Shown here: one piece after another, positions 151 through 60,306 of the stretch
Layout of the letters: each line of letters opens with the position of its first letter
Position numbering within the stretch: position 1 is the stretch's first letter
Virus record (IMG/VR): IMGVR_UViG_3300037400_002787
Span: 1 to 64,000 of that record
DNA from: a virus
Taxonomy: Duplodnaviria > Heunggongvirae > Uroviricota > Caudoviricetes
Direction: 5' to 3' (one strand)
Length of the DNA stretch: 64,000 nt
Position numbers and translations under genes: made by a program
Notes under the pieces: generated by a model
Databases searched by the model: none
Told to the model about the DNA's origin: nothing
What the model saw: the letters and a program-made list of their open reading frames with translations, nothing else

Positions 151-176
151 ATCTCCACATCGACAAGGAGAGTAAA

Positions 177-5703: not shown

Positions 5704-5708
5704 CCCCC

Positions 5709-5738
5709 TTGCAAACTGACACCCGTTTATGATATAAT
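5709..5738 (+). promoter_or_regulatory. sigma70-type phage promoter
   Basis: ccccTTGCAAactgac, N18, TGATATAAT. Confidence 0.65.
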
Positions 5739-5798
5739 ATATTCGTCAAAAGGAGAATATCAAAGACAAAGACAACAATCCAAGAAAGAGAAGTACTT

Positions 5799-9760: not shown

Positions 9761-10366
9761 ATGGCTGACTTTCAGAACAAAAGAGATTGCGACACGCTCG
9801 TAGTCAATCTGTACGGCGGACCAGGTACGGGCAAGTCTACAGGCGCAGGCATAATAACAGGACTACTCAAGGCAAACGGAATTGACGCAGAGTATGTCTC
9901 GGAGGTTGCTAAGGACAAGGTTTGGGAGGAGAATCGAGCAGCCCTTTCCAATCAAGCATACATGTTCGGAAGCCAATACTACAGAATTTCCCGTGTGATG
10001 GGCAAGGTGGATGTCATTGTCACCGACAGTCCTTTGTTGCTTACCTTCATCTACAACCATGATGATTGTCTCGGCAATGCTTTTAATGCCGTTGCCCTCA
10101 ATGTTGCGACCTCTTACAATACATTGGAAGTGTTGCTGGAGCGGACAAAGAAATACAACCCGAACGGACGCATGCAGACAGAAGCGGAATCAGATTCGAT
10201 AACCAAGACCATCAAGGGAATACTCGATAGGTTTCGCGGCAACTACATGAAGGCGACGGGTGACATCTCTGGATATTGGGAGGTGTTCAAGGAAATCGCA
10301 AGGCGTCTGAACCGATTCGACATAATTGCGCAGACGAACGAGAAACTAAAGACGCTCTCGATGTAG
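9761..10366 (+). CDS. P-loop kinase (AAA_33/zeta-toxin-like), possible polynucleotide kinase
   Basis: Walker A GGPGTGKST, Walker B-like VIVTDSP. Sits beside the metallophosphoesterase. Confidence 0.5.
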   Translation: MADFQNKRDCDTLVVNLYGGPGTGKSTGAGIITGLLKANGIDAEYVSEVAKDKVWEENRAALSNQAYMFGSQYYRISRVMGKVDVIVTDSPLLLTFIYNHDDCLGNAFNAVALNVATSYNTLEVLLERTKKYNPNGRMQTEAESDSITKTIKGILDRFRGNYMKATGDISGYWEVFKEIARRLNRFDIIAQTNEKLKTLSM

Positions 10367-10432
10367 AGACGATTATAGAAAGTGAGCGAGAAAACCCAAT
10401 CCCTTAAGTGTAAAGGCAAGCAAAAAAAATAT

Positions 10433-14178: not shown

Positions 14179-14229
14179 GCGCGAGTTCCCTGATTGGCAA
14201 TAATTAAGAGGATATAGATGGAGCAAGCC

Positions 14230-14510
14230 TGTCAGTGACCCAACCCTGAAGGGTTGGGCTTGCGGGTGAAAGAGACCGCGAGCCTGCGCTGACTAGGGGA
14301 CTAGAAAGGAAACGAAGAAACAGAAATGACAGTAGTAGTTCGAGAGGAATGCATAGGCACCCGTGGATGGTTGTCCAAGTCTGCGGCTCTGCGGTGTGCG
14401 GTTAAACAGCCCTGCGAGGTAGGGGCAGTGCCGCATACAAGAAACCCTCTGGAACGCCCCGATGGGCACCTAACCCGCCTTCGGGCGGTGACTTACCCCG
14501 CAAGGGGTCA
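14230..14510 (+). ncRNA. omega-RNA-like structured scaffold (orphan)
   Basis: Homologous to the 41664-41956 scaffold. Differences are largely paired substitutions in GC-rich stems. Confidence 0.55.
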
Positions 14511-14641
14511 TGCCGCGCGGGAGTGTACCCCCTCCCGCCGTGGCTCTTTTTCGGAACCGAAAACAAACAACAAAAGAGAAAGGAGGATGCGCAATTCCTC
14601 CCAACCCTAAAGGGATTGGGTTCCCTTGCGCATTTTCTATG
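14230..14641 (+). mobile_element. ORF-less IscB-type IS200/605 (HEARO/omega-RNA) element, copy A
   Basis: About 88% identical to the omega-RNA region upstream of iscB at 41664. LE hairpin cccaaccctgaagggttggg (14239-14258), RE hairpin gcgcaattcctcccaaccctaaagggattgggttcccttgcgc (14589-14631). The iscB ORF is replaced by about 80 nt. Ends in tttctATG. Confidence 0.7.
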
Positions 14642-15310
14642 GTAATGTTAAGAGAGAACCAGACAAATACCGTTAAAATCTGTGTAGATGCGTCCATAGA
14701 TGTAGCGGGCTTTTCTCTTGTGCTGGCTGCCTGTGGGGTCATTAGGACGATAGCCGACATCTCGGCGGCAACGCTAAGCGTATCCTATTCTGCGGAAGAG
14801 GTGGCGAGGATAAGCAGTTCCGTTACGTATGGGACCTTGATAGTTTATGATGCCGAGGGAGCGGAGTACATGGAGGTACTCCCACGTTTCCGAAGAACTG
14901 CGGCGGACTGCGTTGGCGAACAGACAATCTACCTGACAATAGCTAGCACGAAAGAAATAGATGGAGGATCGGGGGGTGACACCCCCTCTGGGGATTACGT
15001 TACGCCGCAGCAACTCAATCAGGCGATAAACAGAGCATCACAGGCCGCAAATAGATACACCGATGAAGCCGTTGAGGGCATAGAGACCACGATTATCCAG
15101 GAGCAGCCGGTGCATGTTGTGGATGGGGAGGGACAGCCGATAAGTATGACGGTGCAGGAAGCAGTGCAGCAGATTGTCAATAATAGCGAGGCCATTGAAG
15201 ATGCATCGGAGTCCCATCTGCATGGAAAGGTCAAGGATGAGGACGGCGACGGACAGCCGGACGACGAGACGCTCTATCTGAATTCCGGAAAAGATAGCAT
15301 AGTAATTTAA
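14639..15310 (+). CDS. hypothetical protein; start codon lies in the terminal nucleotides of element copy A
   Basis: ATG 14639 is in frame with ORF 14510-15310. The upstream part of that ORF lies in the non-coding element. Confidence 0.45.
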   Translation: MVMLRENQTNTVKICVDASIDVAGFSLVLAACGVIRTIADISAATLSVSYSAEEVARISSSVTYGTLIVYDAEGAEYMEVLPRFRRTAADCVGEQTIYLTIASTKEIDGGSGGDTPSGDYVTPQQLNQAINRASQAANRYTDEAVEGIETTIIQEQPVHVVDGEGQPISMTVQEAVQQIVNNSEAIEDASESHLHGKVKDEDGDGQPDDETLYLNSGKDSIVI

Positions 15311-16400: not shown

Positions 16401-16432
16401 GGCAATGGTGGCTATGGCCACGATTGGAAACA

Positions 16433-16476
16433 GGAGGGGAGGGGATTCGAACTCCCCACCCTCCTTTCCTTTTTTA
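16433..16476 (+). terminator. rho-independent terminator
   Basis: GC-rich hairpin ggaggggagggg/ctccccaccctcc followed by tttccttttttat. Confidence 0.75.
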
Positions 16477-16530
16477 TGCGGAAACAATTTTCCTTTGCAC
16501 GGTGTGGCATATAGTAAAGGGAACTAAACT

Positions 16531-16809
16531 TGTCAGCGACCCAACCCTGAAGGGTTGGGCTTGTGGGTGAAAGAGACCGCGAGCCCGCGCTGACTAGGGG
16601 ACTGAAACGAAAGGTAAAACTAAAGTGACAGTAGCAGTTACAGAGGAATGCATAGGCACCTGCGGATGTGAGTCCAAGTCCGCAGCACTGTGGTGTGCGG
16701 TTAAACAGCCCTGCGAGGCAGGGGCAGTGCCGCATGCAAGAAACCCTCTGCAACGCCCCGATGGGCACCTAACCCGCCTTCGGGCGGTGACTTACCCCGC
16801 AAGGGGTCA
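16531..16809 (+). ncRNA. omega-RNA-like structured scaffold (orphan)
   Basis: Homologous to 14230-14510 and 41664-41956. Confidence 0.55.
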
Positions 16810-16940
16810 TGCCACGCGGGAGTGTACCTCCTCCCGCCGTGGCTCTTTTACGAAACCGAGAACAAACAACAAAAGAGAAAGGAGGATGCGCAATTCCTCC
16901 CAACCCTAAAGGGATTGGGTTCCCTTGCGCATTTTCTATG
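16531..16940 (+). mobile_element. ORF-less IscB-type IS200/605 (HEARO/omega-RNA) element, copy B
   Basis: About 93% identical to copy A. Same LE/RE hairpins. Ends tttctATG at 16938-16940. Confidence 0.7.
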
Positions 16941-17156
16941 GCTATCAAGACTACTAAGCGTAAAGTGTCATCGAGGGATAATCCTAAAGTGATGAATTTT
17001 CTTAACATAAACGGAATGACGCTTTCTCTTGGCGACTTGAGGAAGTCTGATTTTTCGGCAGTAGAAGACCCGAAATGTAGTGTAAAGAGTCTTCAGACAT
17101 GGGCGATACAGTTGAATAACATACTCCGCGGTTTTTCGCAGGCGCAGGAGGATTGA
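16938..17156 (+). CDS. hypothetical protein; start codon at the terminus of element copy B
   Basis: ATG 16938 is in frame with ORF 16809-17156. Alternative start 17000. Confidence 0.4.
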   Translation: MAIKTTKRKVSSRDNPKVMNFLNINGMTLSLGDLRKSDFSAVEDPKCSVKSLQTWAIQLNNILRGFSQAQED

Positions 17157-22330: not shown

Positions 22331-22338
22331 AAACCCCC

Positions 22339-22368
22339 TTGCAATAATCCACAATATTTTGATATAAT
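22339..22368 (+). promoter_or_regulatory. sigma70-type phage promoter
   Basis: cccccTTGCAAtaatcc, N, TGATATAAT. Confidence 0.65.
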
Positions 22369-22408
22369 ATCTTTCGTGCGGGGGCATATATAGTGTAAGA
22401 GGGAAAAT

Positions 22409-28009: not shown

Positions 28010-28021
28010 CTTTCTGCCCCC

Positions 28022-28051
28022 TTGAAATCCGCAACCTAAATATGATATAAT
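28022..28051 (+). promoter_or_regulatory. sigma70-type phage promoter driving a leaderless mRNA
   Basis: ccccTTGAAAtccgc, N, TGATATAAT ends 28051. ATG at 28058, 6 nt downstream. Confidence 0.65.
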
Positions 28052-28057
28052 TTCCAT

Positions 28058-28720: not shown

Positions 28721-28736
28721 ACTTCTCTATACCCCC

Positions 28737-28766
28737 TTTACAACTGACCGCAAGATATGCTATAAT
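28737..28766 (+). promoter_or_regulatory. sigma70-type phage promoter
   Basis: cccccTTTACAactgaccg, N, TGCTATAAT. Confidence 0.65.
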
Positions 28767-28798
28767 TTCTTGCGGTCACGGGAAAAAGGAGAAACAAT

Positions 28799-29296: not shown

Positions 29297-30400
29297 ATGA
29301 CTAACTGTTCGGAGTATGTTTCTACAGCTCATAGCGACAAAACGGCTGATGCCATTGCATCTCACCTGCTTGATGAGTACATCAAGCATGACCCCAAGGT
29401 GAGGTTCGCACTTGAGGTTCAGTTGAAAGACCACATCTGCAACCTTGCGGGCGAGGTCACTTCAACTTGGAAGCCATCTGACGATATTATTGCCGAACTT
29501 GTAAGGGGGGCAATCCGCAAGGTGGGCTACACGGCTGAGTATGCCGCCAAGTGGCCTGAAGGTGCAACCCTTAATGCAGACAAGGTTGTTGTAAACAACT
29601 TCATAGGGCAGCAGTCTCCAGACATTGCACAGGGTGTTGATGTTGACGGATGGGGTGATCAAGGTTGCTTCGCGGGAATGGCCACAAACGAAGAGCGGTA
29701 TAATTACCTTCCTCGCGATGTTTACTTCGCCCGTGAGATTGGCAAGCGGCTTTATCGTGCGGCAAAGGCCGGAACCGCTCCCATCGGACTCGACATCAAG
29801 ACCTTGGTTTCTACTACTAATGCACTCAATGTGGAGCAGGTCATAGTAGCGGCCCCGATGTTGCCCGAGAATGAACAGGAAGCAAGGTCTTTCATTGAGA
29901 AGACCGTGAAGGAAGTCCTTGACGAACGGCATCATATCTGCGACGAAATCATCATCAACGGCACAGGGGCTTATGTAGTCCACTCTTCCGTAGGAGATGC
30001 GGGGGTGGTAGGTAGGAAGTTGGCGGTAGACTTCTACGGGCTGAATTGTCCGATAGGTGGAGGCGCAACTTTTGGCAAGGACGGCACAAAGGCAGATGTG
30101 ACATTGAACCTATATGCTAGATATCGGTCACTCAAGACCATTCTCGCTAGGGGAGGAGTGTTCGACAAGGTGTATACGAAGATTGGGTGCTGCATAGGAA
30201 AGAGCAAGTGCCTTCTGTCACAGGAAGATCAAGACCACAAGATGTTTAACCAAGAGGCTGTTGACATCAAGCCGTCAGAGACGGCAAAGTTGTTCGGTCT
30301 TGATGGAAGTGGTCGTGATGATATGTTCTTCCACCTCTGCGAGGACGGACTGTTTTCGTTTGTGGACGAACTTGCCAAGACGGAAGTGGAGAATAACTAA
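29297..30400 (+). CDS. metK: S-adenosylmethionine synthetase (methionine adenosyltransferase)
   Basis: AHSDKTADAIAS (GHPDKxCDQISD), GQQSPDIAQGVD (GKQSPDINQGVD), GWGDQG (GAGDQG), GDAGVVGRKLAVDFYG, GGGATFGKDGTKADV (GGGAFSGKDPSKVDRS). Confidence 0.8.
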   Translation: MTNCSEYVSTAHSDKTADAIASHLLDEYIKHDPKVRFALEVQLKDHICNLAGEVTSTWKPSDDIIAELVRGAIRKVGYTAEYAAKWPEGATLNADKVVVNNFIGQQSPDIAQGVDVDGWGDQGCFAGMATNEERYNYLPRDVYFAREIGKRLYRAAKAGTAPIGLDIKTLVSTTNALNVEQVIVAAPMLPENEQEARSFIEKTVKEVLDERHHICDEIIINGTGAYVVHSSVGDAGVVGRKLAVDFYGLNCPIGGGATFGKDGTKADVTLNLYARYRSLKTILARGGVFDKVYTKIGCCIGKSKCLLSQEDQDHKMFNQEAVDIKPSETAKLFGLDGSGRDDMFFHLCEDGLFSFVDELAKTEVENN

Positions 30401-31799: not shown

Positions 31800-33280
31800 G
31801 CAATAAGTAGATGAAGTCAGACGAGACCAGGAAGTGCGGATGTTCCGCAGAGAGGCGGCAGAAGGTAAAGGAAAGCCGCAAAGCCACCGCCATCAGGAGG
31901 CGGGGGCAGATGGGTTTCGTCTACGAGTGCAAGATAGTGGAGAGTCGGCTCAACAAGAGGCAGATGGAGGAACTTGAGCGGCTTTTCGTGGAGGGGAAGT
32001 GGTTCTACAACCATGTCTTGTCGCTCCATAGGGAAGGTGTGGGGTTGGGGGAGATTAATGCCACTGCCGTCAAGGAGGTGGGAAGGTTTGACAGGAACCA
32101 CGAGAAGAAGACAGAAAAACTTCAAGTGCTGACCGCTCAGGAGCGGCAGGGGATAATCGCCAGAATGGCCGCCAACGAGAAGACGATATCTGCCCTGGCG
32201 AAGAAGGGGTTGCAGGGAGGCGGGGAGTTGCATTTCCTGTCGGAGATGACGTGCATACCGCTGAAGCAGTACGGTGTGACATACAAGTTCAAGACGCCGA
32301 ACAAGGTGCGGATAGGGGGAATTAGCGGGAGTGTGCTGGTGCGGACTGGCGGACAGTTGGAAGGGGTGGACGAACTGGCGAATGCCAACCTCGTGCATAG
32401 GGCGGACGGCTACTTCCTCAAGGTCACGGGCTTCACAAACATAGAGAATCTAAAACAAACGGAAACGAACGGAAAGGAGATAGGGCTTGATTTTGGAATC
32501 AAGACCAGTGTGACGACATCGGAAGGCGAGAAGATTGACGTGCTAGTTGGAGAAAGCGAACGGCTCAAGCGGCTGCAGAAGGAACTATTCCGCAGGGCAA
32601 AGGGTTCGAACAACAGGTACAGGACAATCAAGAGGATTCGCCGCGAATACCAGAGACTGACGAACAGAAAAACCGACATGGCCAACAAAATTGTCTCGAA
32701 ACTGAAGAAATACAACACGATAGTGATGCAGGACGAGATGATTGTCGGGTGGCACAGGGGACTCTTCGGGAAGCAAGTCCAGCACAGTTGTCTAGGAATC
32801 CTGAAAGAAAAACTCATAAGGCTTCCGCAGACGATAGTGCTCGCCCGTGGAATCCCCACGACCAAGATGTGCCCCGTGTGCAAGACCGTGAACAGGTACG
32901 TCACCCTTGCGGACAGGACGTACAGGTGCGGTTGCGGCTACACCCAAGACCGCGACCTCCATGCCGCAAGGAACATGCTCGTCGTCAAGAATATGGTCTT
33001 TGGAAACAATTTGGAAAAACTACCGCTGGGACGGCGGAAAGTCACGCTCACAGAGTTCCGCACCTCTATCGGAGATGTAACAGTCTCCGACAAGCCGGAA
33101 CGCAGAAGTGGGAAGATGCCATGTCTTTAGCATGGCATAGAGTTCACAGCGGATTCTTCTAGAGAAGCAACTTATTGCAATGGATAAATATGCAACTATT
33201 CTTTTCGCTCGCATAAACCTTGCGGTTGGCGAATATTCTAAAAATAGAGACAAGAATCCATTAATGAGGAGTTCACTATG
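31800..33280 (+). mobile_element. IS200/605-family TnpB-only element 1 (boundaries approximate)
   Basis: Contains the tnpB gene. The 3' flank 33131-33277 is non-coding and would carry the omega/reRNA and RE. Confidence 0.5.
31910..33130 (+). CDS. tnpB: TnpB (OMEGA RNA-guided RuvC-like nuclease)
   Basis: RuvC-I IGLDFGIKT, RuvC-II region VMQDEMIV. C-terminal Zn finger plus RuvC-III CPVCKTVNRY...CGCGYTQDRDLHAARNM. Confidence 0.8.
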   Translation: MGFVYECKIVESRLNKRQMEELERLFVEGKWFYNHVLSLHREGVGLGEINATAVKEVGRFDRNHEKKTEKLQVLTAQERQGIIARMAANEKTISALAKKGLQGGGELHFLSEMTCIPLKQYGVTYKFKTPNKVRIGGISGSVLVRTGGQLEGVDELANANLVHRADGYFLKVTGFTNIENLKQTETNGKEIGLDFGIKTSVTTSEGEKIDVLVGESERLKRLQKELFRRAKGSNNRYRTIKRIRREYQRLTNRKTDMANKIVSKLKKYNTIVMQDEMIVGWHRGLFGKQVQHSCLGILKEKLIRLPQTIVLARGIPTTKMCPVCKTVNRYVTLADRTYRCGCGYTQDRDLHAARNMLVVKNMVFGNNLEKLPLGRRKVTLTEFRTSIGDVTVSDKPERRSGKMPCL

Positions 33281-34463: not shown

Positions 34464-34468
34464 CCCCC

Positions 34469-34498
34469 TTTACAACTGACCATAAGAAATGATATAAT
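34469..34498 (+). promoter_or_regulatory. sigma70-type phage promoter
   Basis: cccccTTTACAactgacca, N, TGATATAAT. Confidence 0.7.
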
Positions 34499-34535
34499 AT
34501 CAACAACTTCAAAGAACAAAAAGGACAAGACGAAA

Positions 34536-35771
34536 ATGAAACTCAATCCGATAATCAATAGCCTACTTGAAACCGACCAGTACAAGTTTTCGATGGGGCA
34601 GACTATCTACCACCAGTTCAACAAGGATGTGACTACCTGGGCTTTCAAGTGTCGTAACAAGAATGTTGTATTCACACCCGAGATGGTGCAGGAGATTCGG
34701 GAGCAGATTGCTCATTTCTGCACCCTTAGGTTCAAGGAGGAAGAACTGGAATGGATGAAGAATACAATTCCTTGGCTTAGCGGTGACTACATTTCGCATC
34801 TCCGTAGGTGGTATCCTAGGCGGGAGCAGATTTTTGTAGACGATGGAGAGATTACACGGAATTGTGAGCCGTGCGGTATGAGAATTACCGCTACAGGAGA
34901 ATGGCTCGACACTTCCATGTACGAGATACCTATTCTCGCTATTGTAAATGAGGTGTATTTCGCTTTCAAGTATGGTGCAGGAGCCCTAAATCGTGCTGCA
35001 CAGGATAGGTTTGAGAAGAAACTGTCCATGATGAAGAATGGATACTATGCCATTGGATGCTTCTCGGAGTTTGGTATGAGGAGAAGGTATTCCGCCCAGA
35101 TGCAGGATTGGATTGTGGGTAGCCTAGCACACTTCGGTACATCTTTCAACACCTTTGTCGGTACTTCCAATGTCTACCTTGCGAAAAAGCACGGAGTCAA
35201 GCCTGTGGGGACGATGGCACATGAGTTTATCCAAGTTGTGGGACAGGCTCACCACGAGCACAATCCCGCCTACTCCAATCACTATATGATGAAGGCTTGG
35301 GTCAAGGAATACGAGACTGATAATGGCATTGCACTCACGGACACCATTACGACAGACTGCTTCCTTCGGGACTTCAACAAGACCTATGCCACACTTTTTA
35401 GCGGTGTGAGGCACGATTCCAACGACCCGTTTGTGTGGGGCGAGAAAATGATTGCTCACTACAAGAAACTTGGCATCGACCCAATGACCAAGACACTCTT
35501 GTTCTCGGATAGCCTTGACTTTAACAAGGCAACACAGATTCGTAATTATTTTAGCGGCAAGGCAAGAGTTGCATTCGGCATCGGGACATACATTGCGAAC
35601 GACACAGGCAAGGAGCCGCTTAATATAGTGATGAAGGTGATAGAAGCGAATGGCTCACCGGTTGCAAAACTTTCCGATATTGATGGCAAGGGTATGTGCC
35701 GTGATATTGCTTATGTAGACTACCTCCGCCGCACAATCGACTGGCGTCTCGCACACGAGAAGGAGGTGTAA
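34536..35771 (+). CDS. pncB: nicotinate phosphoribosyltransferase
   Basis: LLETDQYKFSMGQ (LLDTDAYKLHMQQ), VGTMAHEFIQ, GIALTDTITTDCFLRDF, GVRHDSNDPFVWGEKMIAHYKKLGIDP, NIVMKVIEANGSPVAKLSD. Near colinear with E. coli PncB. Confidence 0.9.
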   Translation: MKLNPIINSLLETDQYKFSMGQTIYHQFNKDVTTWAFKCRNKNVVFTPEMVQEIREQIAHFCTLRFKEEELEWMKNTIPWLSGDYISHLRRWYPRREQIFVDDGEITRNCEPCGMRITATGEWLDTSMYEIPILAIVNEVYFAFKYGAGALNRAAQDRFEKKLSMMKNGYYAIGCFSEFGMRRRYSAQMQDWIVGSLAHFGTSFNTFVGTSNVYLAKKHGVKPVGTMAHEFIQVVGQAHHEHNPAYSNHYMMKAWVKEYETDNGIALTDTITTDCFLRDFNKTYATLFSGVRHDSNDPFVWGEKMIAHYKKLGIDPMTKTLLFSDSLDFNKATQIRNYFSGKARVAFGIGTYIANDTGKEPLNIVMKVIEANGSPVAKLSDIDGKGMCRDIAYVDYLRRTIDWRLAHEKEV

Positions 35772-35825
35772 TAATCTGTTACATAAGTCATAGTCATGGA
35801 TAGTAAATAATCCACAAATTGCCTA

Positions 35826-35853
35826 TTGCATCTTCCACAAAGATATGATACAA
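35826..35853 (+). promoter_or_regulatory. possible promoter for tnpB-2
   Basis: TTGCAT, N16, TGATACAAT. ATG 8 nt downstream. Confidence 0.35.
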
Positions 35854-35861
35854 TACAACCA

Positions 35862-37115
35862 ATGTTGAGAGGAATCCCGATACGTGTGTACCCGAACGAT
35901 GAGCAGAGAGCCTACATAAGTAGGCTCTTGGGCTGTTGTCGTTATGTGTACAACCATCTGCTTGCATTCCAGGAGAAGTTGTTCCTTGAAGAGAAGAGGG
36001 GTGCGAAGCAGTCGGAGATTACAGAATTCTACAATGAAGAGAAAACTCAGAACCAGTTTCTTCGCGAAGTCCACAGCAAAGTGCTTCAACAGTCCCGAAT
36101 AGACTTGCAGACGGCATGGGGAAACTACTTCAAGAGCCTAAAGAAGTCTAGCGGCAAGAAAGCGAACAAACCGATCTACCATAAGAAGGGCATCAAGGAA
36201 TCTTGTAGATTTCCCGTAGATGCTTTCATCGGCATCAGGGGCAACCGAATATCCATCATCAAGCCGTTGCGGGACATGCATTTCAAGTGCAGCAGACGGG
36301 ACGAGCGGTACTTGAACAAACACCAAGACGAAGTGAAGAGCATAACCCTGCGGAAGACGGGCGGTGGTAGGTATTACTGCTCCGTGCTAATAGATGACCG
36401 CCGCATACGGCCGTTGCCAAAGGAAGAGAAAGATGTAGGCATAGACCTAGGTGTGAAGGATTCTGCAATAACATCAGATGGGGACAAGTTCGAGAATCCC
36501 AAGGCATTGGCAAAGGTGGAGAAGCAGATAAAGAGGTGGGAGAGAATCAAGTCCCGTCGAGAGAGGGGAAGCAATAGGCGGAGAATGGCGGTAGCGAGAG
36601 TGTCCCGTCTGCACGAAAGGGCTTCCAACATACGAAAGGATTTCCAGCACAAGGCGACGACCCGAATAGTCCGCGAAAACCAAGCGGTCTATGTCGAAGA
36701 CCTCAATGTGGCTGGTATGATGAAGAACCACAAACTGGCAAAGGCGGTGGCAGATTCCTCTATGAGTGGATTAGTCCGAATGCTGGAGTACAAGTGCAAG
36801 TGGTACGGACGGGAACTGGTGAAGGTTGACAGATGGTATGCCAGCAGCCAGACCTGTTCGTGCTGCGGGTACAAGAACTCCGAGGTGAAGAACCTCAAAG
36901 TCAGGGAGTGGGTATGTCCCAAGTGCGGTAAGCATCACGACCGCGATGTGAATGCGGCTGTGAATGTGCTACATGAGGGGCGGAGAATCAGAGAGAATAA
37001 GGTAGGGCTGAGTTCGCCCGAACCTAACGCTCGTGGACAGGGCAACGGGGGAGTTTCCATGCCGCAAGGTGCGGAGACAGCCGTTCTGGACGAAGCGAGA
37101 AAGGAATGTGCCTAA
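35862..37115 (+). CDS. tnpB: TnpB (OMEGA RNA-guided RuvC-like nuclease)
   Basis: N-terminus [15 protein letters not shown], Ruv[12 protein letters not shown], Ruv[17 protein letters not shown]. Zn finger CSCCGY...CPKCG, Ruv[15 protein letters not shown]. Confidence 0.85.
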
Positions 37116-37289: not shown

Positions 37290-37844
37290 ATGGGAGAGTG
37301 TACTGATTTCTTTGCACAGAAGAGAAGCCTTCTTGCGAAGCCTGGTGAGGAAGGACAACATGCTTTTTGGGAACATGATATTGGGTTCCTTAATAAGGCA
37401 TTCTGGTTTGATAGATTAATGTGGGATATGCCATCTTCATTGGAAGCCTCTGGAAAGGATAGAAAACTTATCAGGAGCGGCTTACATTCTGATTGTGAAT
37501 CACCACTGACAGTAGATTTCTTGAAGTATGTTATCACGAAACTCCAAGAGATGGACAAGAAGGTTCTCGGGATGCCCTGCGACCCGAAGACCGACCATGC
37601 AAGTTATGAGTTTAATCATAATTGCGATATGGTTTTCAACGGAACTACGAATGGAATAGCCATGATGTCCGCAGTGGCAGAGGTGCTTGGTACCCGATGC
37701 GACATAGATTTCACATACCCTTGGGAAGAAAATCAAGATGAAATAGGGTCGGTTGGAATTCAGCGTATGTTGCAGAGCGTTATTGATAGATACAATGAAT
37801 TGAACAAGGATGGGGATTGGATTTTGTATAAGACTACTGGTTGA
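37290..37844 (+). CDS. hypothetical protein
   Basis: SD aagaaggaggtctaacATG. AT-richer codon usage than neighbours. Confidence 0.5.
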   Translation: MGECTDFFAQKRSLLAKPGEEGQHAFWEHDIGFLNKAFWFDRLMWDMPSSLEASGKDRKLIRSGLHSDCESPLTVDFLKYVITKLQEMDKKVLGMPCDPKTDHASYEFNHNCDMVFNGTTNGIAMMSAVAEVLGTRCDIDFTYPWEENQDEIGSVGIQRMLQSVIDRYNELNKDGDWILYKTTG

Positions 37845-37877
37845 TTGTAAAAATGAGAAAACCGAAGGAAGTCTGAG

Positions 37878-38033
37878 ATGTTAGTGTCAGAACTAATTAG
37901 AAAGTTGGTGAACATTAATCGCCCCGATTCAGAAGTCATTATCGACTCTCGTTCTTGCGGCTATGATTTCGACGAAGTAACGGATGTCAAATCTATGGAT
38001 GTTGTGACCATTTATGGGGAGAAGGAGAATTGA
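37878..38033 (+). CDS. possible small protein (51 aa)
   Basis: SD gaaggaagtctgagATG. Stop couples to the next start (TGATATG). Confidence 0.3.
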   Translation: MLVSELIRKLVNINRPDSEVIIDSRSCGYDFDEVTDVKSMDVVTIYGEKEN

Positions 38034-38034
38034 T

Positions 38035-38571
38035 ATGTTTGTTGGGGGAATTACCAGAGAGTCTCTTGCAAAAGAGGCAAGACGGAAAAAAATGCTAGAG
38101 GAAATAGCACCGGCAAAAGACACACGCCCTTCTTGGAATACCTATTTTCTAAAGCTCGCAAAGGATGTCTCCGAGCGTAGCAACTGCTGCCGCCGCAAGG
38201 TTGGAGCGGTTATCGTCAAGGACAACCACATCATTGCTACGGGTTACAATGGTACACCCGCAGGAACCACCAACTGTTTCGACGGCGGCTGTCCTAGGTG
38301 CAACCACACCCACACAACAGGAGAGAAACTTGATGAGTGTCTTTGTGTTCATGCCGAGCAGAATGCGATATGCCAGGCGGCAAAGCACGGCAATGCCGTT
38401 GACGGAGGGCATATCTACATAACCTGCTCTCCTTGTCTTACCTGCTTGAAGTTGATAATCAATGCTGGCATCAAGAGAGTTGTTTTCAGCGAGTGGTACA
38501 AGCCTTTTAATGAGCAGGAACTAAACCTCATACAAGAAGCGAAACTTGAATATATGGAGTGCGTGAGATGA
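38035..38571 (+). CDS. dCMP deaminase (CDA-fold zinc deaminase)
   Basis: CVHAEQNAI (HAE) and PCLTCLKLIINAGIKRV (PCxxC) zinc-binding motifs. Confidence 0.8.
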   Translation: MFVGGITRESLAKEARRKKMLEEIAPAKDTRPSWNTYFLKLAKDVSERSNCCRRKVGAVIVKDNHIIATGYNGTPAGTTNCFDGGCPRCNHTHTTGEKLDECLCVHAEQNAICQAAKHGNAVDGGHIYITCSPCLTCLKLIINAGIKRVVFSEWYKPFNEQELNLIQEAKLEYMECVR

Positions 38572-39263
38572 CCAATAGACCTGGAATTATGGGGAGTATA
38601 ACTCCCCGCATGGGGATATTCGGAGGAACTTTTTCTCCTTTCACTGTTGCCCATAGAGCGATTGTCAAAGCATTTATAGGCACCTATCGTCTGGATGAAC
38701 TATATATAATTCCTACAATTGTTAATTATCATCGTGAGGGAAAAAACGACTTGCTTCTAGAAACGGACAAGGTGGAAATCATAGAGAGGATGTTAGACAC
38801 ACTCTCGCCGTTCTATCAGAGACGCATTTTTATAGACAAGAGCGAGTTTGCCTATAGAGACCTGTGCCTTGGTATGTCAGACGAGGCTTGGACCACACTT
38901 GTGGACGGACGAAGGTTTATTCATACTCTTCTAGACTTCAATGTGAGACATGGGATAGATAAAGATGTTTCCCGTCCTTATGTCTGTATTGGGACGGACT
39001 CCTTTGAGCATCTTGACCAATGGTATATGAACACGGAGATTGTGAAAATATGCAATCTTGTTGTTGTTCAGGGAAGGAACGATGTGTTTGTTTCCAGACC
39101 CAAAATCCCGCATACCGAATTTAGAATAGCCTATGACTACGAGAAGGTGTCGGCAAGCAAGATACGGGATAAGATGCGATGCCGCAACTGGAGTCACTAC
39201 ATAGCGGATGTCAAGAGACTAGACGAGGGGAAGACAACCCTTGCGGAATTAGGATGGATTTAA
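38568..39263 (+). CDS. nadD: nicotinate/nicotinamide mononucleotide adenylyltransferase (NadD/NMNAT family)
   Basis: GIFGGTFSPFTVAH (FGGTFDPVHYGH), CIGTDSFEHLDQW (IIGqDSL..F..W), VSASKIRDKM (ISAT.IRe.l). ATGA overlap with the upstream gene. Confidence 0.7.
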   Translation: MTNRPGIMGSITPRMGIFGGTFSPFTVAHRAIVKAFIGTYRLDELYIIPTIVNYHREGKNDLLLETDKVEIIERMLDTLSPFYQRRIFIDKSEFAYRDLCLGMSDEAWTTLVDGRRFIHTLLDFNVRHGIDKDVSRPYVCIGTDSFEHLDQWYMNTEIVKICNLVVVQGRNDVFVSRPKIPHTEFRIAYDYEKVSASKIRDKMRCRNWSHYIADVKRLDEGKTTLAELGWI

Positions 39264-39777: not shown

Positions 39778-41016
39778 ATGGAATCCTACAAATTTAACCC
39801 TGAGCAAGCATTCAACACAATCTCCGACCACTGGAAGAAGTGGGCTACGGCACACGGCATGGAGCAGTGGGTGGTCGGCATCTCCGGCGGAGTTGACAGT
39901 TCCGTGACGGCAGCTCTCGCCGCCAAGATATTTGGCTACGACAATGTACTCGGAGTCCTTATGCCGAATGGAGAGCAGAAAGACATTGAGGACGCCAAGG
40001 ACATTTGCCGACACCTCAAAATAGAGTGGTGTACCGTCAACATCGGGAGGACTTATGAGGAACTTCTTGATGAGGTTGTGTTTGGTGCATTGAGGGCATA
40101 TGGCATCGAGAGGGCTTCTACCGACACCATCACGAATATGCCGGCGAGGTTGAGGATGACTGCCCTGTATGCTATCGCACAATCCACTGCCAGGATGGTT
40201 CTCAACACCTGCAACCTATCTGAGTCCACGGTGGGCTACGATACGCTTTGGGGCGACGATGCCGGTTCCTATGCCCCTATTCAGGGTCTTACAAAGACCG
40301 AGGTGATTGCCCTCGGCGACTGGCTCGGTCTCCCGCACAACTTCACCCACAAGACTCCGATAGATGGCTTGCAGCCCAAGACAGATGAGGAGAAACTCGG
40401 CTTCACCTATGCCGACCTCGACCGCTATATCCGAGAGGACATCGGCACTCCAGAACTCAAGGCGAAGGTCGATGACCTCTATCGCCGCAACAAGTTCAAG
40501 ACCGATATGATTCATATCGACGGACCGAACTTCTATGCACTCGCCAACTTCGTCCGATACAACAACCTGCCCGATGCAGAGAAAACAGTCAAGCAAGCAT
40601 TTGCGGATAATCTCGACATTGTAAGGCTTGAGCCAGAACCACGATACCCGGAGGATGCATGGATCAACGGGGAGAGAGACGACAACGACAATCCGAAGAT
40701 GCCGTTCATGGTTGCCGATGAAAAGGCACAGAACGGCTGGGTGTGGAAACTAGATGTCAACATCAAGACGGGCGAAGTCATCGGATGGCCGAAGGATGTC
40801 AAGGCAGAGGTTCATTACAAGGTTTGCGACTGCTGCCGCATCAAGTATAATGGAGAAGAATACTACGAATATGTACCCGACTTTCTTGAAATAGATGACG
40901 AGGGATATGGAGACTACATTATACTAACAATTGATGATGGCAAAATAGTCAACTGGAGCGAGTCCGACTGCCGTAAGTTCATCAATGATGTTCTCTTCAA
41001 AGACGAGGGAAAGTAA
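39778..41016 (+). CDS. nadE: NH3-dependent NAD+ synthetase with about 140-aa C-terminal extension
   Basis: PP-loop VVGISGGVDSS. GNxxARLRM-like block (PARLRMTALY), ESTVGYDTLWGDDAGSYAPI ([26 protein letters not shown]). Confidence 0.85.
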   Translation: MESYKFNPEQAFNTISDHWKKWATAHGMEQWVVGISGGVDSSVTAALAAKIFGYDNVLGVLMPNGEQKDIEDAKDICRHLKIEWCTVNIGRTYEELLDEVVFGALRAYGIERASTDTITNMPARLRMTALYAIAQSTARMVLNTCNLSESTVGYDTLWGDDAGSYAPIQGLTKTEVIALGDWLGLPHNFTHKTPIDGLQPKTDEEKLGFTYADLDRYIREDIGTPELKAKVDDLYRRNKFKTDMIHIDGPNFYALANFVRYNNLPDAEKTVKQAFADNLDIVRLEPEPRYPEDAWINGERDDNDNPKMPFMVADEKAQNGWVWKLDVNIKTGEVIGWPKDVKAEVHYKVCDCCRIKYNGEEYYEYVPDFLEIDDEGYGDYIILTIDDGKIVNWSESDCRKFINDVLFKDEGK

Positions 41017-41392: not shown

Positions 41393-41683
41393 ATGAGATT
41401 AACAGAACTTACCCCCATATTCGTAGACCAAATCCCCGAAGAACTCGAGGATGGGAAAATATATGTCTGCCGTAAATACAAGACGGCAACACATCTCTGC
41501 GCCTGTGGATGTGGTAAAAAAGTTGTCACACCTTTCAAGGAAGGTTTTTGGACATTGACTACTAATGACATAGATAGCAAGGTGACGATGAGACCGTCTA
41601 TCGGGAACTTTGATATTCCGTGCAAGTCGCACTATTTCCTCACAGACAACAAGGTGGAATGGGTGTCAGTGGTCCGACCCTGA
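41393..41683 (+). CDS. hypothetical zinc-ribbon protein; 3' end and stop lie inside the IscB element left end
   Basis: CACGCGKK motif. Stop codon TGA falls within the LE hairpin ccgaccctgaagggttggg. Confidence 0.45.
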   Translation: MRLTELTPIFVDQIPEELEDGKIYVCRKYKTATHLCACGCGKKVVTPFKEGFWTLTTNDIDSKVTMRPSIGNFDIPCKSHYFLTDNKVEWVSVVRP

Positions 41684-41956
41684 AGGGTTGGGCTTGTAAG
41701 GGGAACCGAACAAGCCTGCGCTGACTAGGGGACTAGAAAGGAAACAGAGAAACAGAAATGATAGTAGCAGTTCAAGAGGAATGCATAGGCACCCGTGGAT
41801 GTTTGTCCAAGTCTGCGGCACTGCGGTGTGTGGTTAAACAAGCCTGCGAGGTAGGGCTAGTGCCACACACGATAAACCCTCTTGAACGCCCCGATGGGCA
41901 CCTAACCTCCCCGCAAGGGGAGTGACTTACCCTGAACAAGGGTCAAACCAAAAGCG
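41664..41956 (+). ncRNA. omega-RNA (HEARO-type) scaffold of IscB
   Basis: Non-coding GC-rich paired region directly upstream of iscB. Conserved in two orphan copies. Confidence 0.6.
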
Positions 41957-43222
41957 ATGACATACATAATAGACAGAGACGGGAAGCCATTGATGCCGAC
42001 GAAGCGCGGCAATATGGTTCGTCATCTGCTGAAGAGCGGTGTCGCCAAGGTGGTTCGTTACGAGCCATTCACGGTGATGATACTGCGCGATGTAGGTCAT
42101 TGCGTCCAAGCGGTGACGCTTGGTGTTGATGTGGGGAGCAGGCACATCGGGCTTTCCGCAACGACTGAAAAGAAGGAACTGTATTCCGCACAGGTGGAAC
42201 TAAGGGACGATGTGTCTAAACTTCTGACGGCTCGCAGGGAGTTTAGGAGGGCAAGGCGAGGACGCAAGCACAACTGGTATCGTCCAGCAAAATGGTCTAA
42301 CAGGGCGAATGAGGAGGGCAATGCCGCTCTTCCGCCGAGCATCAAGCACAAGGCTGAATCGCACATTCGGGCGATACGATTTATATGCAGGATGCTACCT
42401 ATTGGCAAGATAGTGGTGGAGATAGGGAAGTTTGATGTACAGAAATTGAAGAACCCCGAAATCCACAACGAGCAGTACCAACAGGGAACATTGGCAGGCT
42501 GGGAGAACCTGAAAGCCTACGCGAAGTATCGTGATGGCTACAAGTGTCGCGCATGTGGGAAGAGCAAACACAAGGATGGCGCGAGGCTTGAAGTCCACCA
42601 CATCATTCGCAAGGCAGATGGCGGTACGGATGTGCCAGAGAATGTAGTAACCTTGTGCGAGGATTGCCATGCGGCTCACCACAAGGGCGAAAGGAAGTTG
42701 AAGTTCCGCCAAGCGCCACAGCACAAGGCGGAAGCCCACATGAATGCGATGCGGAAGTATCTGATAGATGCTCTTTTCTGGTCTGGCAGGAGAATAGATG
42801 TGACCTACGGCTACAAGACGGCAATGGCACGGAGTGAGCATGGCATAGCGAAGTCTCATGCATCTGATGCATACTGCATAGCAGGGAACTTCAGTGCGGA
42901 GCGGAATGACTATAATATGTATCTTCACAAGTTCGTTCGCCGCCATAACCGTTGTCTACATAAGTTCACTATCTTAAAAGGTGGAATCCGCAAGGCGAAC
43001 CAAGCCCCAAAGTATGTGTTCGGTTTTCGGTTATTTGATTGCGCCCGATACAACGGGCAGGATTGCTTTGTGTTCGGGCGTCGGTCGAGCGGTTCTTTCG
43101 ACATACGGACGCTGGGGGGCAAGAAGATTTCGGCTGGGGTCTCGTACAAGAAGCTCAAGCCACTAACTAAGTCAACAACAATTCTAACAGAAAGGGGGAT
43201 GCGCGATTCCTCCCAACCCTGA
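41957..43222 (+). CDS. iscB: IscB (OMEGA RNA-guided HNH/RuvC nuclease)
   Basis: PLMP domain DGKPLMPT, RuvC-I LGVDVGSRHIGLS, Arg-rich bridge helix RREFRRARRGRKHNWYRPAKW. RuvC-II EIGKFD, HNH CRACGKS...HHIIRKADGGTDVPENVVTLCEDCHAAHH, RuvC-III SHASDAYCIAG. Confidence 0.85.
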   Translation: MTYIIDRDGKPLMPTKRGNMVRHLLKSGVAKVVRYEPFTVMILRDVGHCVQAVTLGVDVGSRHIGLSATTEKKELYSAQVELRDDVSKLLTARREFRRARRGRKHNWYRPAKWSNRANEEGNAALPPSIKHKAESHIRAIRFICRMLPIGKIVVEIGKFDVQKLKNPEIHNEQYQQGTLAGWENLKAYAKYRDGYKCRACGKSKHKDGARLEVHHIIRKADGGTDVPENVVTLCEDCHAAHHKGERKLKFRQAPQHKAEAHMNAMRKYLIDALFWSGRRIDVTYGYKTAMARSEHGIAKSHASDAYCIAGNFSAERNDYNMYLHKFVRRHNRCLHKFTILKGGIRKANQAPKYVFGFRLFDCARYNGQDCFVFGRRSSGSFDIRTLGGKKISAGVSYKKLKPLTKSTTILTERGMRDSSQP

Positions 43223-43250
43223 AGGGATTGGGTTTCCTCGCGCAGTTTCT

Positions 43251-43559
43251 ATGAAGGCGAAGAATCACAAGTCAGCATCTAAGGTCATAGCGGAACTTTG
43301 CGGCGACCCTTCGATAGAGAAGGAAGTCAAGTCAAGACTAAGGGCAAAGAGAAGTAAGCCTAAGAAAACCCGCATCATCATAGAACACGGCGACGAGCGG
43401 TACGAAGTAAAGTTCAACCGTGACTGTATGCGGACATGTTCTTTTGTTAAGCACACGCCATATGGTCCGTGCGAAAACTGTTGTTCTCTGCCAAGATGGT
43501 TTGAGAAAATCGTCCAGAAGTTTCCTGAATCACATCTGAAAAGGATAGACAAGGAATAA
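43251..43559 (+). CDS. hypothetical protein; start codon at the terminus of the IscB element
   Basis: ATG 43251 lies within the terminal tttctATG shared by all three elements. Confidence 0.45.
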   Translation: MKAKNHKSASKVIAELCGDPSIEKEVKSRLRAKRSKPKKTRIIIEHGDERYEVKFNRDCMRTCSFVKHTPYGPCENCCSLPRWFEKIVQKFPESHLKRIDKE

Positions 43560-44565: not shown

Positions 44566-44572
44566 AGCCGAT

Positions 44573-44602
44573 TTGACAACTGCAAGCCATAAATGCTATA
44601 AT
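44573..44602 (+). promoter_or_regulatory. sigma70-type phage promoter
   Basis: TTGACAactgcaagcc, N, TGCTATAAT. Confidence 0.65.
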
Positions 44603-44636
44603 ACGCATTGAAAAAACCTAAACAGGAGAAACAAAA

Positions 44637-48183: not shown

Positions 48184-48993
48184 ATGGCTAATCAACAAGA
48201 AAAGATAACCGCCAAGGACATTCTGTCTCTCCTTCGCCAGAAGTACCTCGACTCCCGCGAGTGGGTAGTTGCCTCGGAAGTCCAGCGCACGACAGGGTGG
48301 AGCGACCGCCGATACGACTTTGTGGCGATGAACTGCTGGAACTCAAACTTCTACAAGATAGAGGTTGTTGAAATCAAGGTCAGCAAGTCCGACCTTCGCC
48401 ACGAACTAGAGGAAGCGGAGAAACACACTGTCATCTTCGACGAGATAGACTACTATTCCCTTGCCGCTCCCGCCGAGATAATCGACATGCGGATTATCCC
48501 GCCCAAGTGGGGAGTGTATGCTTATACGGATGGCAAACTGGTTACTAAACGGAAGCCCCTGCATCTCCACGATGAATTCAAGTCCACTGTGAGTCGCACC
48601 TTTGCGGCATCGTTTATGAGGGCGGCAATCGCCCAGAATATGGAGAAGACGCTTTTGTACGACGAAAAGCAGAAGGCGTTCGAGAAAGGGTTTAAGGAGG
48701 GCAGGGAGTCCTGCGGATTCGCCGCCAACGAGCGAGAAGAGTTTGAGCGGCTAAGGGACGAGAATCGTAGAGTTCAAGAAATTCTCTATTCTTTAGGTTT
48801 GTATTCAATTCTTGGGAAAAGCGAAGCAGCGAAGAGCAAGGTTGAATGGCTAAAGAAAGCGAAGAACATAGTGGAAACACTAGATGTCGGAAATCTTAAC
48901 TATTCTCTTAACAATATGAAGAGGGCTTTGGGGGAAATGGAGAACACGATGCAGGAGTTTAAGAAACTTCAGGATTCCGCTTCGGCCCCTTGA
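48184..48993 (+). CDS. MmcB-like PD-(D/E)XK nuclease-fold protein
   Basis: RRYDFVAMNCWNSNFYKIEVVEIKVSKSDL fits D...E.K with a flanking MmcB-like pattern. Confidence 0.4.
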   Translation: MANQQEKITAKDILSLLRQKYLDSREWVVASEVQRTTGWSDRRYDFVAMNCWNSNFYKIEVVEIKVSKSDLRHELEEAEKHTVIFDEIDYYSLAAPAEIIDMRIIPPKWGVYAYTDGKLVTKRKPLHLHDEFKSTVSRTFAASFMRAAIAQNMEKTLLYDEKQKAFEKGFKEGRESCGFAANEREEFERLRDENRRVQEILYSLGLYSILGKSEAAKSKVEWLKKAKNIVETLDVGNLNYSLNNMKRALGEMENTMQEFKKLQDSASAP

Positions 48994-49019
48994 AAACCGA
49001 AAGCTGAAAATGATATAAT
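48990..49019 (+). promoter_or_regulatory. sigma70-type phage promoter
   Basis: ccccTTGAAAaccgaaag, N, TGATATAAT. Confidence 0.65.
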
Positions 49020-49054
49020 ATAGGCAAACCTAAAACAAACATAGGAGATAAATA

Positions 49055-51084: not shown

Positions 51085-51094
51085 ATCACCCCCC

Positions 51095-51124
51095 TTTACA
51101 TCTGACCGCTATTTGTGATATAAT
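51095..51124 (+). promoter_or_regulatory. sigma70-type phage promoter
   Basis: cccccTTTACAtctgaccgc, N, TGATATAAT. Nearly identical to the promoter at 121. Confidence 0.7.
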
Positions 51125-51262
51125 ATACATCACGGCTTTAAGAAGGGATTTTACAATGCAATATACAATCGGGTATAAGAATAATAAAATAGAGATATGG
51201 TTAAGACAGGTGACACAAGATTGTAGTTGTGTACACTAACATACTTTGCGAGAAGCTAGAAA

Positions 51263-54568: not shown

Positions 54569-54871
54569 ATGGCAACGACAAAGAAGCCAGTCCAGAAGAA
54601 AGCGGCAGTCAAGGCGGCGAAGAAGACCGTCAAGGCTGTCAAGAAGCCAGTAACGAAGACGAAGACCGTCAAGCCGACGGCGAAGAAGGCGGCAGCCCCC
54701 GCAAAGAAGACTGCCTCAAAGAAGCCGACGAAGACCAAGGCCACCCCGATGACCAAGGTCGTGGTTGACCGTATGCCTCTTCCGAAGGGCGGAAAGGTGT
54801 TTGTCAAGGCGGTCAAGCGCCCAGCCGCAAAGAAGGCGGCGAAGAAAGCCGTAGCACAGAAGCGCAAGTAA
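54569..54871 (+). CDS. histone H1-like Lys/Ala-rich DNA-binding protein
   Basis: AKKxxK repeats throughout. SD aaggagaaggaaATG. Confidence 0.5.
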   Translation: MATTKKPVQKKAAVKAAKKTVKAVKKPVTKTKTVKPTAKKAAAPAKKTASKKPTKTKATPMTKVVVDRMPLPKGGKVFVKAVKRPAAKKAAKKAVAQKRK

Positions 54872-58344: not shown

Positions 58345-58356
58345 CATTATACCCCC

Positions 58357-58386
58357 TTTACAACTAACGGCAATATATGATATACT
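58357..58386 (+). promoter_or_regulatory. sigma70-type phage promoter driving a leaderless mRNA
   Basis: cccccTTTACAactaacgg, N, TGATATACT ends 58386. In-frame ATG at 58394. Confidence 0.6.
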
Positions 58387-58393
58387 ATGGTTG

Positions 58394-59593: not shown

Positions 59594-59609
59594 ACAAGTC
59601 TGCACCTGC

Positions 59610-59639
59610 TTGACAGTTATAACCGAATTGTGCTATAAT
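59610..59639 (+). promoter_or_regulatory. sigma70-type phage promoter driving a leaderless mRNA
   Basis: TTGACA, N18, TGCTATAAT ends 59639. ATG at 59646. Confidence 0.6.
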
Positions 59640-59645
59640 ATCTCT

Positions 59646-60194: not shown

Positions 60195-60213
60195 AGATTT
60201 TTGAAATTCCACC

Positions 60214-60243
60214 TTGAAATCGACGGCACGAATATGATATAAT
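60214..60243 (+). promoter_or_regulatory. sigma70-type phage promoter
   Basis: TTGAAAtcgacggc, N, TGATATAAT. Confidence 0.65.
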
Positions 60244-60306
60244 ATACAACCGAAGATTGAAGAGGTGTCCGAAGTTTTGGTTAACCAAAAAAAAGAAAGA
60301 ACAAAA

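Follow-up and report, generated by a model that had tools for sequence, protein, structure and literature searches.

The locus described here raises the question of what maintains an RNA-guided nuclease element between two phage genes, the first of which now stops inside a hairpin of the element and the second of which starts at the base directly after it. The locus spans positions 41,393 to 43,559 of a 64,000-nucleotide stretch of viral DNA (positions 1 to 64,000 of IMG/VR record IMGVR_UViG_3300037400_002787; the whole stretch is hereafter called the window), which is phage DNA with genes for a collar protein, a head-completion protein, a crAss001_48-like protein, a dUTPase and a dCMP deaminase. 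We propose, with a probability of about 0.8, that the locus carries a non-autonomous IscB element of the IS200/IS605 family, accompanied in the window by two internally deleted derivatives that retain only the omega-RNA, and that RNA-guided cutting of empty alleles keeps the set in place and probably spreads it among co-infecting phages. Cas9 descends from IscB, whose natural role, the cutting of the empty site so that the transposon is restored by copying, has to our knowledge been demonstrated only in bacteria and with plasmids.

IscB, its omega-RNA and the empty sites

The 421-amino-acid (aa) open reading frame (ORF) of the element matched the Pfam families RRXRR (E 2.1e-51, residues 3-177, with the motif GKPLMPT at residues 9-15) and HNH (E 1.7e-12, residues 197-243), the HNH being inserted in RuvC, and it matched solved IscB structures, OgeuIscB among them, at E about 1e-45. 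The RuvC residues D58, E155 and H301/D304 aligned with those of OgeuIscB. In an alignment with 30 relatives these residues were present and invariant, as were the HNH residues H214/H215, N229 and H238 and the zinc cysteines C197/C200/C234/C237, confirming the full set of catalytic motifs (PLMP, RuvC I-III, HNH) claimed in an earlier note on this DNA, with no catalytic residue substituted. OgeuIscB and the other IscBs of solved omega-RNA complexes (PDB 7XHT, 7UTN, 8CSZ) are homologous to it in the PLMP, RuvC and HNH regions (E about 1e-44) and have the same catalytic residues; OgeuIscB is 496 aa long. With 6700 proteins at E <= 1e-30, the clade is large, and most of it is intact. Among the matches listed (120 of the 6700), relatives were 65-87% identical, and many clade members come from contigs of 100-276 kb that also carry phage genes close by. 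Exact look-ups of IscB and of the 102-aa protein encoded downstream matched no record, and a scan of GTDB genome proteins for IscB relatives found none.

Upstream of the IscB ORF, which starts at 41957 on the same strand, the Rfam model HEARO (RF02033) matched at 41665-41906 (113.4 bits), bearing out the long structured RNA that had been proposed there. The model also matched at 14231-14474 (115.4 bits) and 16532-16773 (117.8 bits), and all three matches are full-length, on the plus strand and above the gathering score of 83. An alignment of five omega-RNA copies, three from the window and two from relatives on viral contigs, gave 81 consensus pairs, 16 of them with compensatory changes, so that covariation, on which the earlier note had let its RNA depend, was found. 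The consensus fold takes in two 3' hairpins outside the HEARO model, which all three copies match whole; the model is incomplete on its 3' side, and the omega-RNA sits at the transposon right end (Meers et al., bioRxiv 10.1101/2023.03.14.532601). A self-splicing intron or IStron was set aside, the whole-window Rfam scan at the gathering threshold having given only the three HEARO matches. As judged from these features, the window carries a genuine and probably active IscB element (copy C) with two guide-only satellites, miniatures A and B (Table 1).

Repeat analysis and alignment gave all three window copies the same ends, a left end starting GTCAG and a right end closing in TTTCT and followed by ATG, which bears out the two ORF-less copies of the earlier note. 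The miniatures keep the whole omega-RNA and the last ~65 nt of the element, including only the last ~35 nt of iscB; they are 92% identical to each other over 300 nt, without a difference in the final 68 nt. They thus resemble PATE- or MITE-like IS200/IS605 derivatives in keeping the ends and the guide RNA and in having the nuclease gene deleted, here together with one nuclease gene within one 64-kb phage stretch. The ends lack terminal inverted repeats and carry subterminal imperfect hairpins in direct orientation (CCGACCCTGAAGGGTTGG at the omega-RNA end, CCCAACCCTGAAGGGATTGGG at the far end). Because the base on the left flank varies among relatives (g, a, c, t) next to a constant GTCAG/GTTAG, a one-base ambiguity was removed; together with the empty sites described below, this left the element of the earlier note standing and moved its limits from 41664-43253 to 41665-43250. 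The IscB-distal end of copy C folds into an outer stem (43199-43205/43239-43245) and an inner hairpin (43212-43232), with the IscB stop TGA (43220-43222) in the loop. This stop is not a fixed feature of the element, since in the related contig L054 (4240-4330) the loop stop is out of frame and IscB reads through the transposon end and 19 codons of the next gene's region, giving 440 aa. In another relative, L007, the sequence breaks within the repeat. A GTDB search with the end-hairpin pattern returned only unrelated HEARO-type hairpins (metagenome-assembled genomes of Chloroflexaceae, Poribacteria and Woesearchaeota) and gave no clue to the host. A degenerate remnant of a distal end (Table 1) fills the short spacer between a gene at 9761-10366 and a metallophosphatase gene (probable start 10434).

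We compared the insertions with related phages on ENA and Logan contigs, reached via homologues of the flanking proteins and numbered here with the prefix L. This comparison, which the earlier note had proposed, yielded empty sites from which the target and motif were deduced. In L019 the junction ...acaacaaggtggaatgggtATGAaggcg... equals the window up to 41664 joined to the window from 43251; its DUF6527 ortholog is 91% identical and ends in AAG GTG GAA TGG GTA TGA (V91), with the next gene starting at the overlapping ATG. L028 and L029 share the gene order of the window in the surroundings of the miniatures. Their empty allele at site A is ...GCAAGCCT followed directly by ATGGTA (read as ...ggagcaagcctATGGTACTG...), and those at site B are ...AAAGGGAG and 6-9 nt followed by ATGGC (read as ...aaagggagcaagattATGGCAATC... 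and ...aaagggagttaaaaactATGGCTAAC...). The flanks join exactly at the empty sites of all three insertions, with no target duplication. Since the ATG is present at all three empty sites, it is native and belongs to the phage, contradicting the claim of a start codon supplied by the right end and correcting the attractive idea of start-codon donation by the element. The ORFs that begin at the ATG abutting each copy, at 43251-43559 (102 aa), 14639-15310 (223 aa) and 16938-17156 (72 aa), are intact and conserved, and the JGI gene call starts the 223-aa gene at the same ATG, 14639.

The companion claim, that the left end supplies a stop codon, held for copy C only, as a by-product. Insertion displaced the native ATGA stop/start overlap by 1.6 kb, so the DUF6527 ORF runs five codons further; its tail now reads GTG TCA GTG GTC CGA CCC TGA, adding SVVRP, and the TGA (41681-41683) lies in the end-hairpin loop. 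The claim failed for miniatures A and B, whose upstream genes end 52 nt and 131 nt ahead of them. Megablast of the flank and element against 50,697 GenBank phages gave no match, and IMG/VR searches with DUF6527, the 343-aa and 248-aa neighbours and a NadE-like protein returned only distant or truncated relatives and no empty site. An exact empty-site pattern found nothing in JGI metagenomes, the pattern being too strict, as divergence in the true empty allele begins 9 nt past the ATG; a second metagenome scan yielded only the same truncated contig.

Table 1. Positions of the IscB element, its derivatives and associated features in the window
Feature	Position	Strand	Details
Full IscB element (copy C), 1586 bp	41665..43250	+	GTCAG...TTTCT; no target-site duplication; L019 empty site, three-copy alignment, relatives
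Omega-RNA scaffold	41665..41956	+	HEARO 41665-41906 and two 3' hairpins; transposon right end in TnpA terms
IscB ORF, 421 aa	41957..43222	+	PLMP/RRXRR region, split RuvC, HNH, C-terminal beta-rich region
IscB-distal end (TnpA left end)	43191..43250	+	Shine-Dalgarno-like AAAGGGGG at 43191-43198, stems, TTTCT tail
Target-adjacent motif ATGAA	43251..43255	+	L019 empty site; its ATG is the native start of the 102-aa gene
DUF6527 (BubE) gene	41393..41683	+	Pfam DUF6527, E 1e-20, residues 30-91; last five codons and stop belong to the element
Predicted guide C, ACAAGGTGGAATGGGT	41649..41664	+	directly 5' of HEARO; 3' end of the DUF6527 gene
Miniature A, 408 nt	14231..14638	+	omega-RNA and distal end, no IscB; HEARO 115.4 bits; empty sites L028, L029
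Predicted guide A, TAGATGGAGCAAGCCT	14215-14230	+	directly 5' of miniature A
Miniature B, 406 nt	16532..16937	+	omega-RNA and distal end, no IscB; HEARO 117.8 bits; empty sites L028, L029
Predicted guide B, AAAGGGAACTAAACTT	16516-16531	+	directly 5' of miniature B
Degenerate solo distal-end remnant	10375..10411	-	inverted-repeat pairs I1-I3, 81-86% complementary to the three right ends; alignment

Motif, guides and predicted homing

An ATG abuts 15 of the 15 right ends examined, most often as ATGAA. Miniature A is followed by ATGGT (14639), miniature B by ATGGC (16938) and the elements of L004 and L005 by ATGAG and ATGAA, and ten further right ends in relatives are followed by ATGAA, ATGAT, ATGGA or ATGAC. 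Read on the IscB strand, the family motif is ATGR(N), equivalent to (N)YCAT on the 5' side of the TnpA left end; its first three bases are the start codon. Geobacillus stearothermophilus IscB (GstIscB) has the wild-type motif TTCAT on the 5' side of the left end (Meers et al., bioRxiv 10.1101/2023.03.14.532601), and since its reverse complement is ATGAA, the motif of copy C equals that of GstIscB. The motif of OgeuIscB, given as NWRRNA in PMC12660989, is unlike it. A compact IscB of 421 aa with a short ATGR motif is of minor practical interest.

With a guide length of 16 nt, taken from known IscB architecture, one guide was predicted directly 5' of each omega-RNA (Table 1). Each guide consists of the displaced native Shine-Dalgarno sequence and spacer of the downstream gene (GGAG and 7 nt for A, AAGGGA and about 7-9 nt for B, GGTGGA and 6 nt for C). 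Guide C matches L019 at 16/16 positions, followed by ATGAAG, and L021 at 15/16, followed by ATGAAC. Guide A matches L028 at 15/16 and L029 at 14/16, the mismatches in L029 lying distal to the motif, and ATGGTA follows in both. No window site with the motif lay within three mismatches of any guide. The occupied sites carry GTCAG in the motif position, and the recognition site is intact only in the empty alleles (sites C and A); the replacement of the motif by GTCAG would make an occupied site safe from cleavage. In L021 (3465-3486) the guide C target and ATGAA are kept at the end of a gene unrelated to DUF6527 save for its last residues (DNKVEWV and the stop), and the guide C junction sequence appears to be a conserved module boundary.

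We propose that TnpA from elsewhere would insert the element into single-stranded DNA next to ATGR. The genome is about 89% coding, so surviving insertions would lie mostly at gene starts, co-oriented with the operon and between the Shine-Dalgarno sequence with its spacer and the ATG. A read-in transcript from upstream phage genes would then give an omega-RNA with the displaced 16 nt as a 5' guide recording the site, and IscB with this RNA would cut genome copies that have a guide match and ATGR, namely the empty allele. Recombinational repair from a filled genome would reinstall the element, which would restore it after excision and let it home into co-infecting relatives. All three omega-RNAs would draw in trans on the one IscB gene; stand-alone omega-RNA loci and PATE-like derivatives are reportedly presumed to use a nuclease encoded elsewhere.

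Consensus scans found no promoter just upstream of any copy, and no plus-strand terminator at the right ends or outward promoter. The absence of an upstream promoter fits the read-in transcription inferred for IscB omega-RNA by Meers et al. (bioRxiv 10.1101/2023.03.14.532601). The three copies are co-oriented with plus-strand operons, and nearly all window genes lie on the plus strand. Between the 343-aa gene and miniature B there is a G-rich/C-rich palindrome followed by a T-run (16420-16475, plus strand; GGAGGGGAGGGGATTCGAACTCCCCACCCTCC TTTCCTTTTTT), which is kept at the empty sites; if it is a terminator, it puts the source of omega-RNA B in doubt. Insertion without target-site duplication and beside a short specific motif agrees with the IS200/IS605 family. 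No Y1 (HUH) TnpA (PF01797) was found among 42 ORFs of about 90-220 aa and 15 ORFs scanned singly within the 64-kb window, and the IscB copies are therefore classed as non-autonomous within the window. Most iscB elements lack tnpA, and about 1.5% have one (Meers et al., bioRxiv 10.1101/2023.03.14.532601).

The architecture and motif are already known from the ISGst-type IscB elements of G. stearothermophilus (Meers et al., bioRxiv 10.1101/2023.03.14.532601), which share the layout of guide, right end with omega-RNA, iscB, left end and motif. Both kinds lack tnpA and have the motif ATGAA on the iscB strand, and for ISGst-type elements omega-RNA production by read-in transcription and cleavage of the empty donor joint were put forward, as we propose here. 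The window element differs in lying in a phage and not in a bacterial chromosome, in its looser ATGR motif, in its copies at start codons and in having one IscB gene beside two omega-RNA-only copies, and it is known from sequence alone. Gene drive by TnpB on multicopy plasmids was demonstrated experimentally (Mears et al., PMC11870625), and there too the guide records the site, copies lacking the element are cut and inheritance in a multicopy replicon is biased without TnpA. That work used TnpB and plasmids; IscB homing into co-infecting phages was only proposed ('transposon non-restorative homing', review PMC13565253) and is a prediction here. The free-standing homing endonucleases of T-even phages (SegF, SegB, Mob; PMC13565253) are likewise intergenic between conserved genes, cut a competitor allele in co-infection and co-convert flanking markers, whereas recognition here would be by an RNA guide and a short motif and not by protein, and transposon ends are present as well. 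The interest of the window lies in the phage setting, in filled and empty alleles that occur naturally and fit the guides and in the expression of genes with a split initiation region. The exact match between a guide and an empty allele, together with the proven Geobacillus motif, makes phage-to-phage RNA-guided homing directly testable with defined sequences.

Several points weigh against this proposal. Guide B differs at at least five positions, motif-proximal ones included, from both site B empty alleles (L028, L029), which leaves omega-RNA B without a known cleavable target. L019 holds an extra 90-aa gene to the right of the motif and thus is not a simple isogenic empty allele. The empty alleles also give no direction, as precise excision and never-occupied sites look alike. 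The TnpA screen described above covered 64 kb of a 96.6-kb contig and the two ORF sets named. The C-terminal domain of IscB that would interact with the target-adjacent motif is putative: residues 339-421 are conserved inside the clade, the phmmer alignment to solved IscBs stops short of them, so that this domain is without a sequence alignment to OgeuIscB-type structures, and the AlphaFold model built with 30 close relatives is poor (overall pLDDT 49.7, with the beta-rich residues 351-400 at 68-85). The identity, boundaries and motif of the element, the filled/empty polymorphism and the guide-target matches are established by the sequences; transcription, cleavage, homing, use in trans and a TnpA from outside the window are inferences from them.

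Translation of the split genes and competing readings

The insertions raise the further question of how a gene stays translated with 0.4-1.6 kb wedged between its ribosome-binding site and its ATG. In the three window insertions and in L056, the native Shine-Dalgarno sequence stays upstream of the element and the ATG downstream, and no Shine-Dalgarno sequence was found within the last 20 nt before the three downstream ATGs; matches of at least 5 nt were found for 41% of window genes and 9% of random positions. Split ribosome-binding sites are known in T4 genes 38 and 25. The element may be, although we think it less likely than not, an adapted insertion module specialised for translation-initiation regions, in which AAGGAGG and a hairpin of ~50 nt might rebuild the ribosome-binding site or ribosomes might reinitiate 28 nt past the IscB stop; this is an extension of the homing proposal and not a replacement for it. 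Of 11 right ends folded, 10 have AAGGAGG (or AAAGGGGG, AAAGGAG) directly 5' of the outer stem; L052 shows a weaker GAGGA and a spacer of 8 nt, and no purine motif is present in the solo end L048. The motif was there in the ten full-length copies, miniatures and solo ends (L045, L046) read base by base. The outer stem covaries among relatives (ATGCGCAA/TTGCGCAT; ATGCGCG/CGCGCA; GTGTGCAA/TTGCACAC; GCGTC/GACGC), the ATG lies 5-6 nt past it, and the IscB stop lies in the hairpin loop, 28 nt ahead of the ATG. The Arg codons within the purine motif are always AGG, a codon that makes up 31% of Arg codons in these genes. The conservation of the intact downstream ORFs also favours such a module, as do two IscB-less solo ends that retain AAGGAGG or AAAGGAG ahead of long ORFs.

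These signs of adaptation are offset by others. The predicted folds pair the purine motif with the UUUCU spacer (unpaired probability 0-0.5), so that it may be sequestered, and in full-length copies it doubles as coding sequence (E/G-R-R-M-R). Common descent of the copies makes the counts non-independent, and 5 of the 15 ends precede ORFs of only 4-30 codons. The start-codon bias itself is explicable by purifying selection. The window has 1122 ATGR sites, of which 48 are gene starts, and gene starts make up about a third of the ATGR sites that tolerate insertion (48 of roughly 150, the denominator being a rough estimate). Start-codon adjacency was therefore dropped as proof of targeted insertion, since purifying selection on the tolerable ATGR sites could give most of it. 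It is doubtful that a phage-borne IscB clade has become specialised for translation-initiation regions, with the start codon as motif, the displaced ribosome-binding site as guide, the distal end as a portable ribosome-binding site and one IscB driving itself and two satellites without a transposase.

L046 (about 4200-4300, minus strand) and L045 (1560-1650, plus strand) each have a solo right-end module (AAGGAGG, hairpin, TTCTT, ATG) that no HEARO precedes. In both it makes up the entire 5' leader of a long ORF; one module, leading into a ClpX-like gene, comes immediately after a TGGTATAAT promoter. L046 also has a block of eight tRNA genes.

A different role is conceivable, although we regard it as rather unlikely: the phage may keep IscB and the three guides as a domesticated weapon that cuts competing relatives at conserved gene junctions during co-infection, the spread of the element being secondary. 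The guides match related phages from other samples, target C (KVEWV, stop and ATGAA) is conserved even in L021 with its non-homologous upstream gene, and the phage is rich in counter-defence genes, among them those for Tad2-like proteins and NAD salvage. Every copy, however, has both transposon ends intact, and the guides are merely the flanks, as with any IS200/IS605 insertion. Benefit to the phage and selfish drive share the same molecular events and are indistinguishable at this level.

It is less probable still that the copies are inert relics, that is, old decaying insertions with an inactive IscB, inactive miniatures and passive codon coincidences. Decay would agree with the degenerate remnant at 10375-10411, with the lack of a TnpA gene among the window ORFs scanned and with a guide B that has no matching empty allele. 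Against it stand a full-length ORF with every catalytic residue kept, omega-RNAs that are full-length in score and carry compensatory pairs, the near identity of the miniatures described above and the size of the mostly intact clade. The idea that the element is built for seamless embedding in coding sequence, donating a stop at one end and a start at the other, accounts for an upstream ORF that stops in the end hairpin and a downstream ORF that starts at the next base, but is very improbable given an ATG already at all three empty sites, a stop supplied by one of three copies, a non-coding left flank in L004 and L056 and, in L054, an upstream gene with its own stop 1 nt before the element.

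Neighbouring genes and repeats

At 34536-35771 and 39778-41016 and in ORFs within 37290-39263, the window also encodes an NAD-salvage cluster (NAPRTase, NAD synthase, cytidylyltransferase-like, NUDIX and isochorismatase proteins) together with two Tad2-like (anti-Thoeris) proteins; an S-adenosylmethionine (SAM) synthetase lies at 29297-30400. By their predicted functions, these genes form a putative counter-defence arsenal adjoining the mobile elements. Two TnpB genes were found at 31811-33130 (plus strand, 439 aa) and 35826-37115 (plus strand, 429 aa), with the Pfam domains OrfB_IS605 and Cas12f1-like TNB, so that both kinds of OMEGA nuclease occur together in one phage stretch.

TnpB was also seen at the equivalent of site C in relatives. 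In L024 (2480-4100), and likewise in L025-L027, most of the DUF6527 gene has given way to a TnpB element (436 aa), which follows a CCCCCCCCTTGAC...TATCAT promoter and lies right before the homologue of the 102-aa gene. With the extra small genes in L019 and L021, this marks the junction of the DUF6527 and 102-aa genes as a hot spot of IS200/IS605-family insertion and of gene-cassette exchange.

A 37-nt motif, CCCCCTTTACA-N-TGATATAATAT, has 13 copies in the window (116-152, 5704-5740, 22334-22370, 28017-28053, 28732-28768, 34464-34500, 35820-35856, 44568-44604, 48985-49021, 51090-51126, 58352-58388, 59605-59641 and 60209-60245). It is an extended -10 promoter of the sigma-70 type with a C-rich upstream tract, presumably the phage's own promoter class, and the same type of promoter precedes the insertions in L024 and L056. 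Three imperfect 47-nt direct repeats at 54584-54852 (plus strand) are rich in AAG and GCG codons (lysine/alanine-rich), and the longest ORFs there lie on the minus strand.

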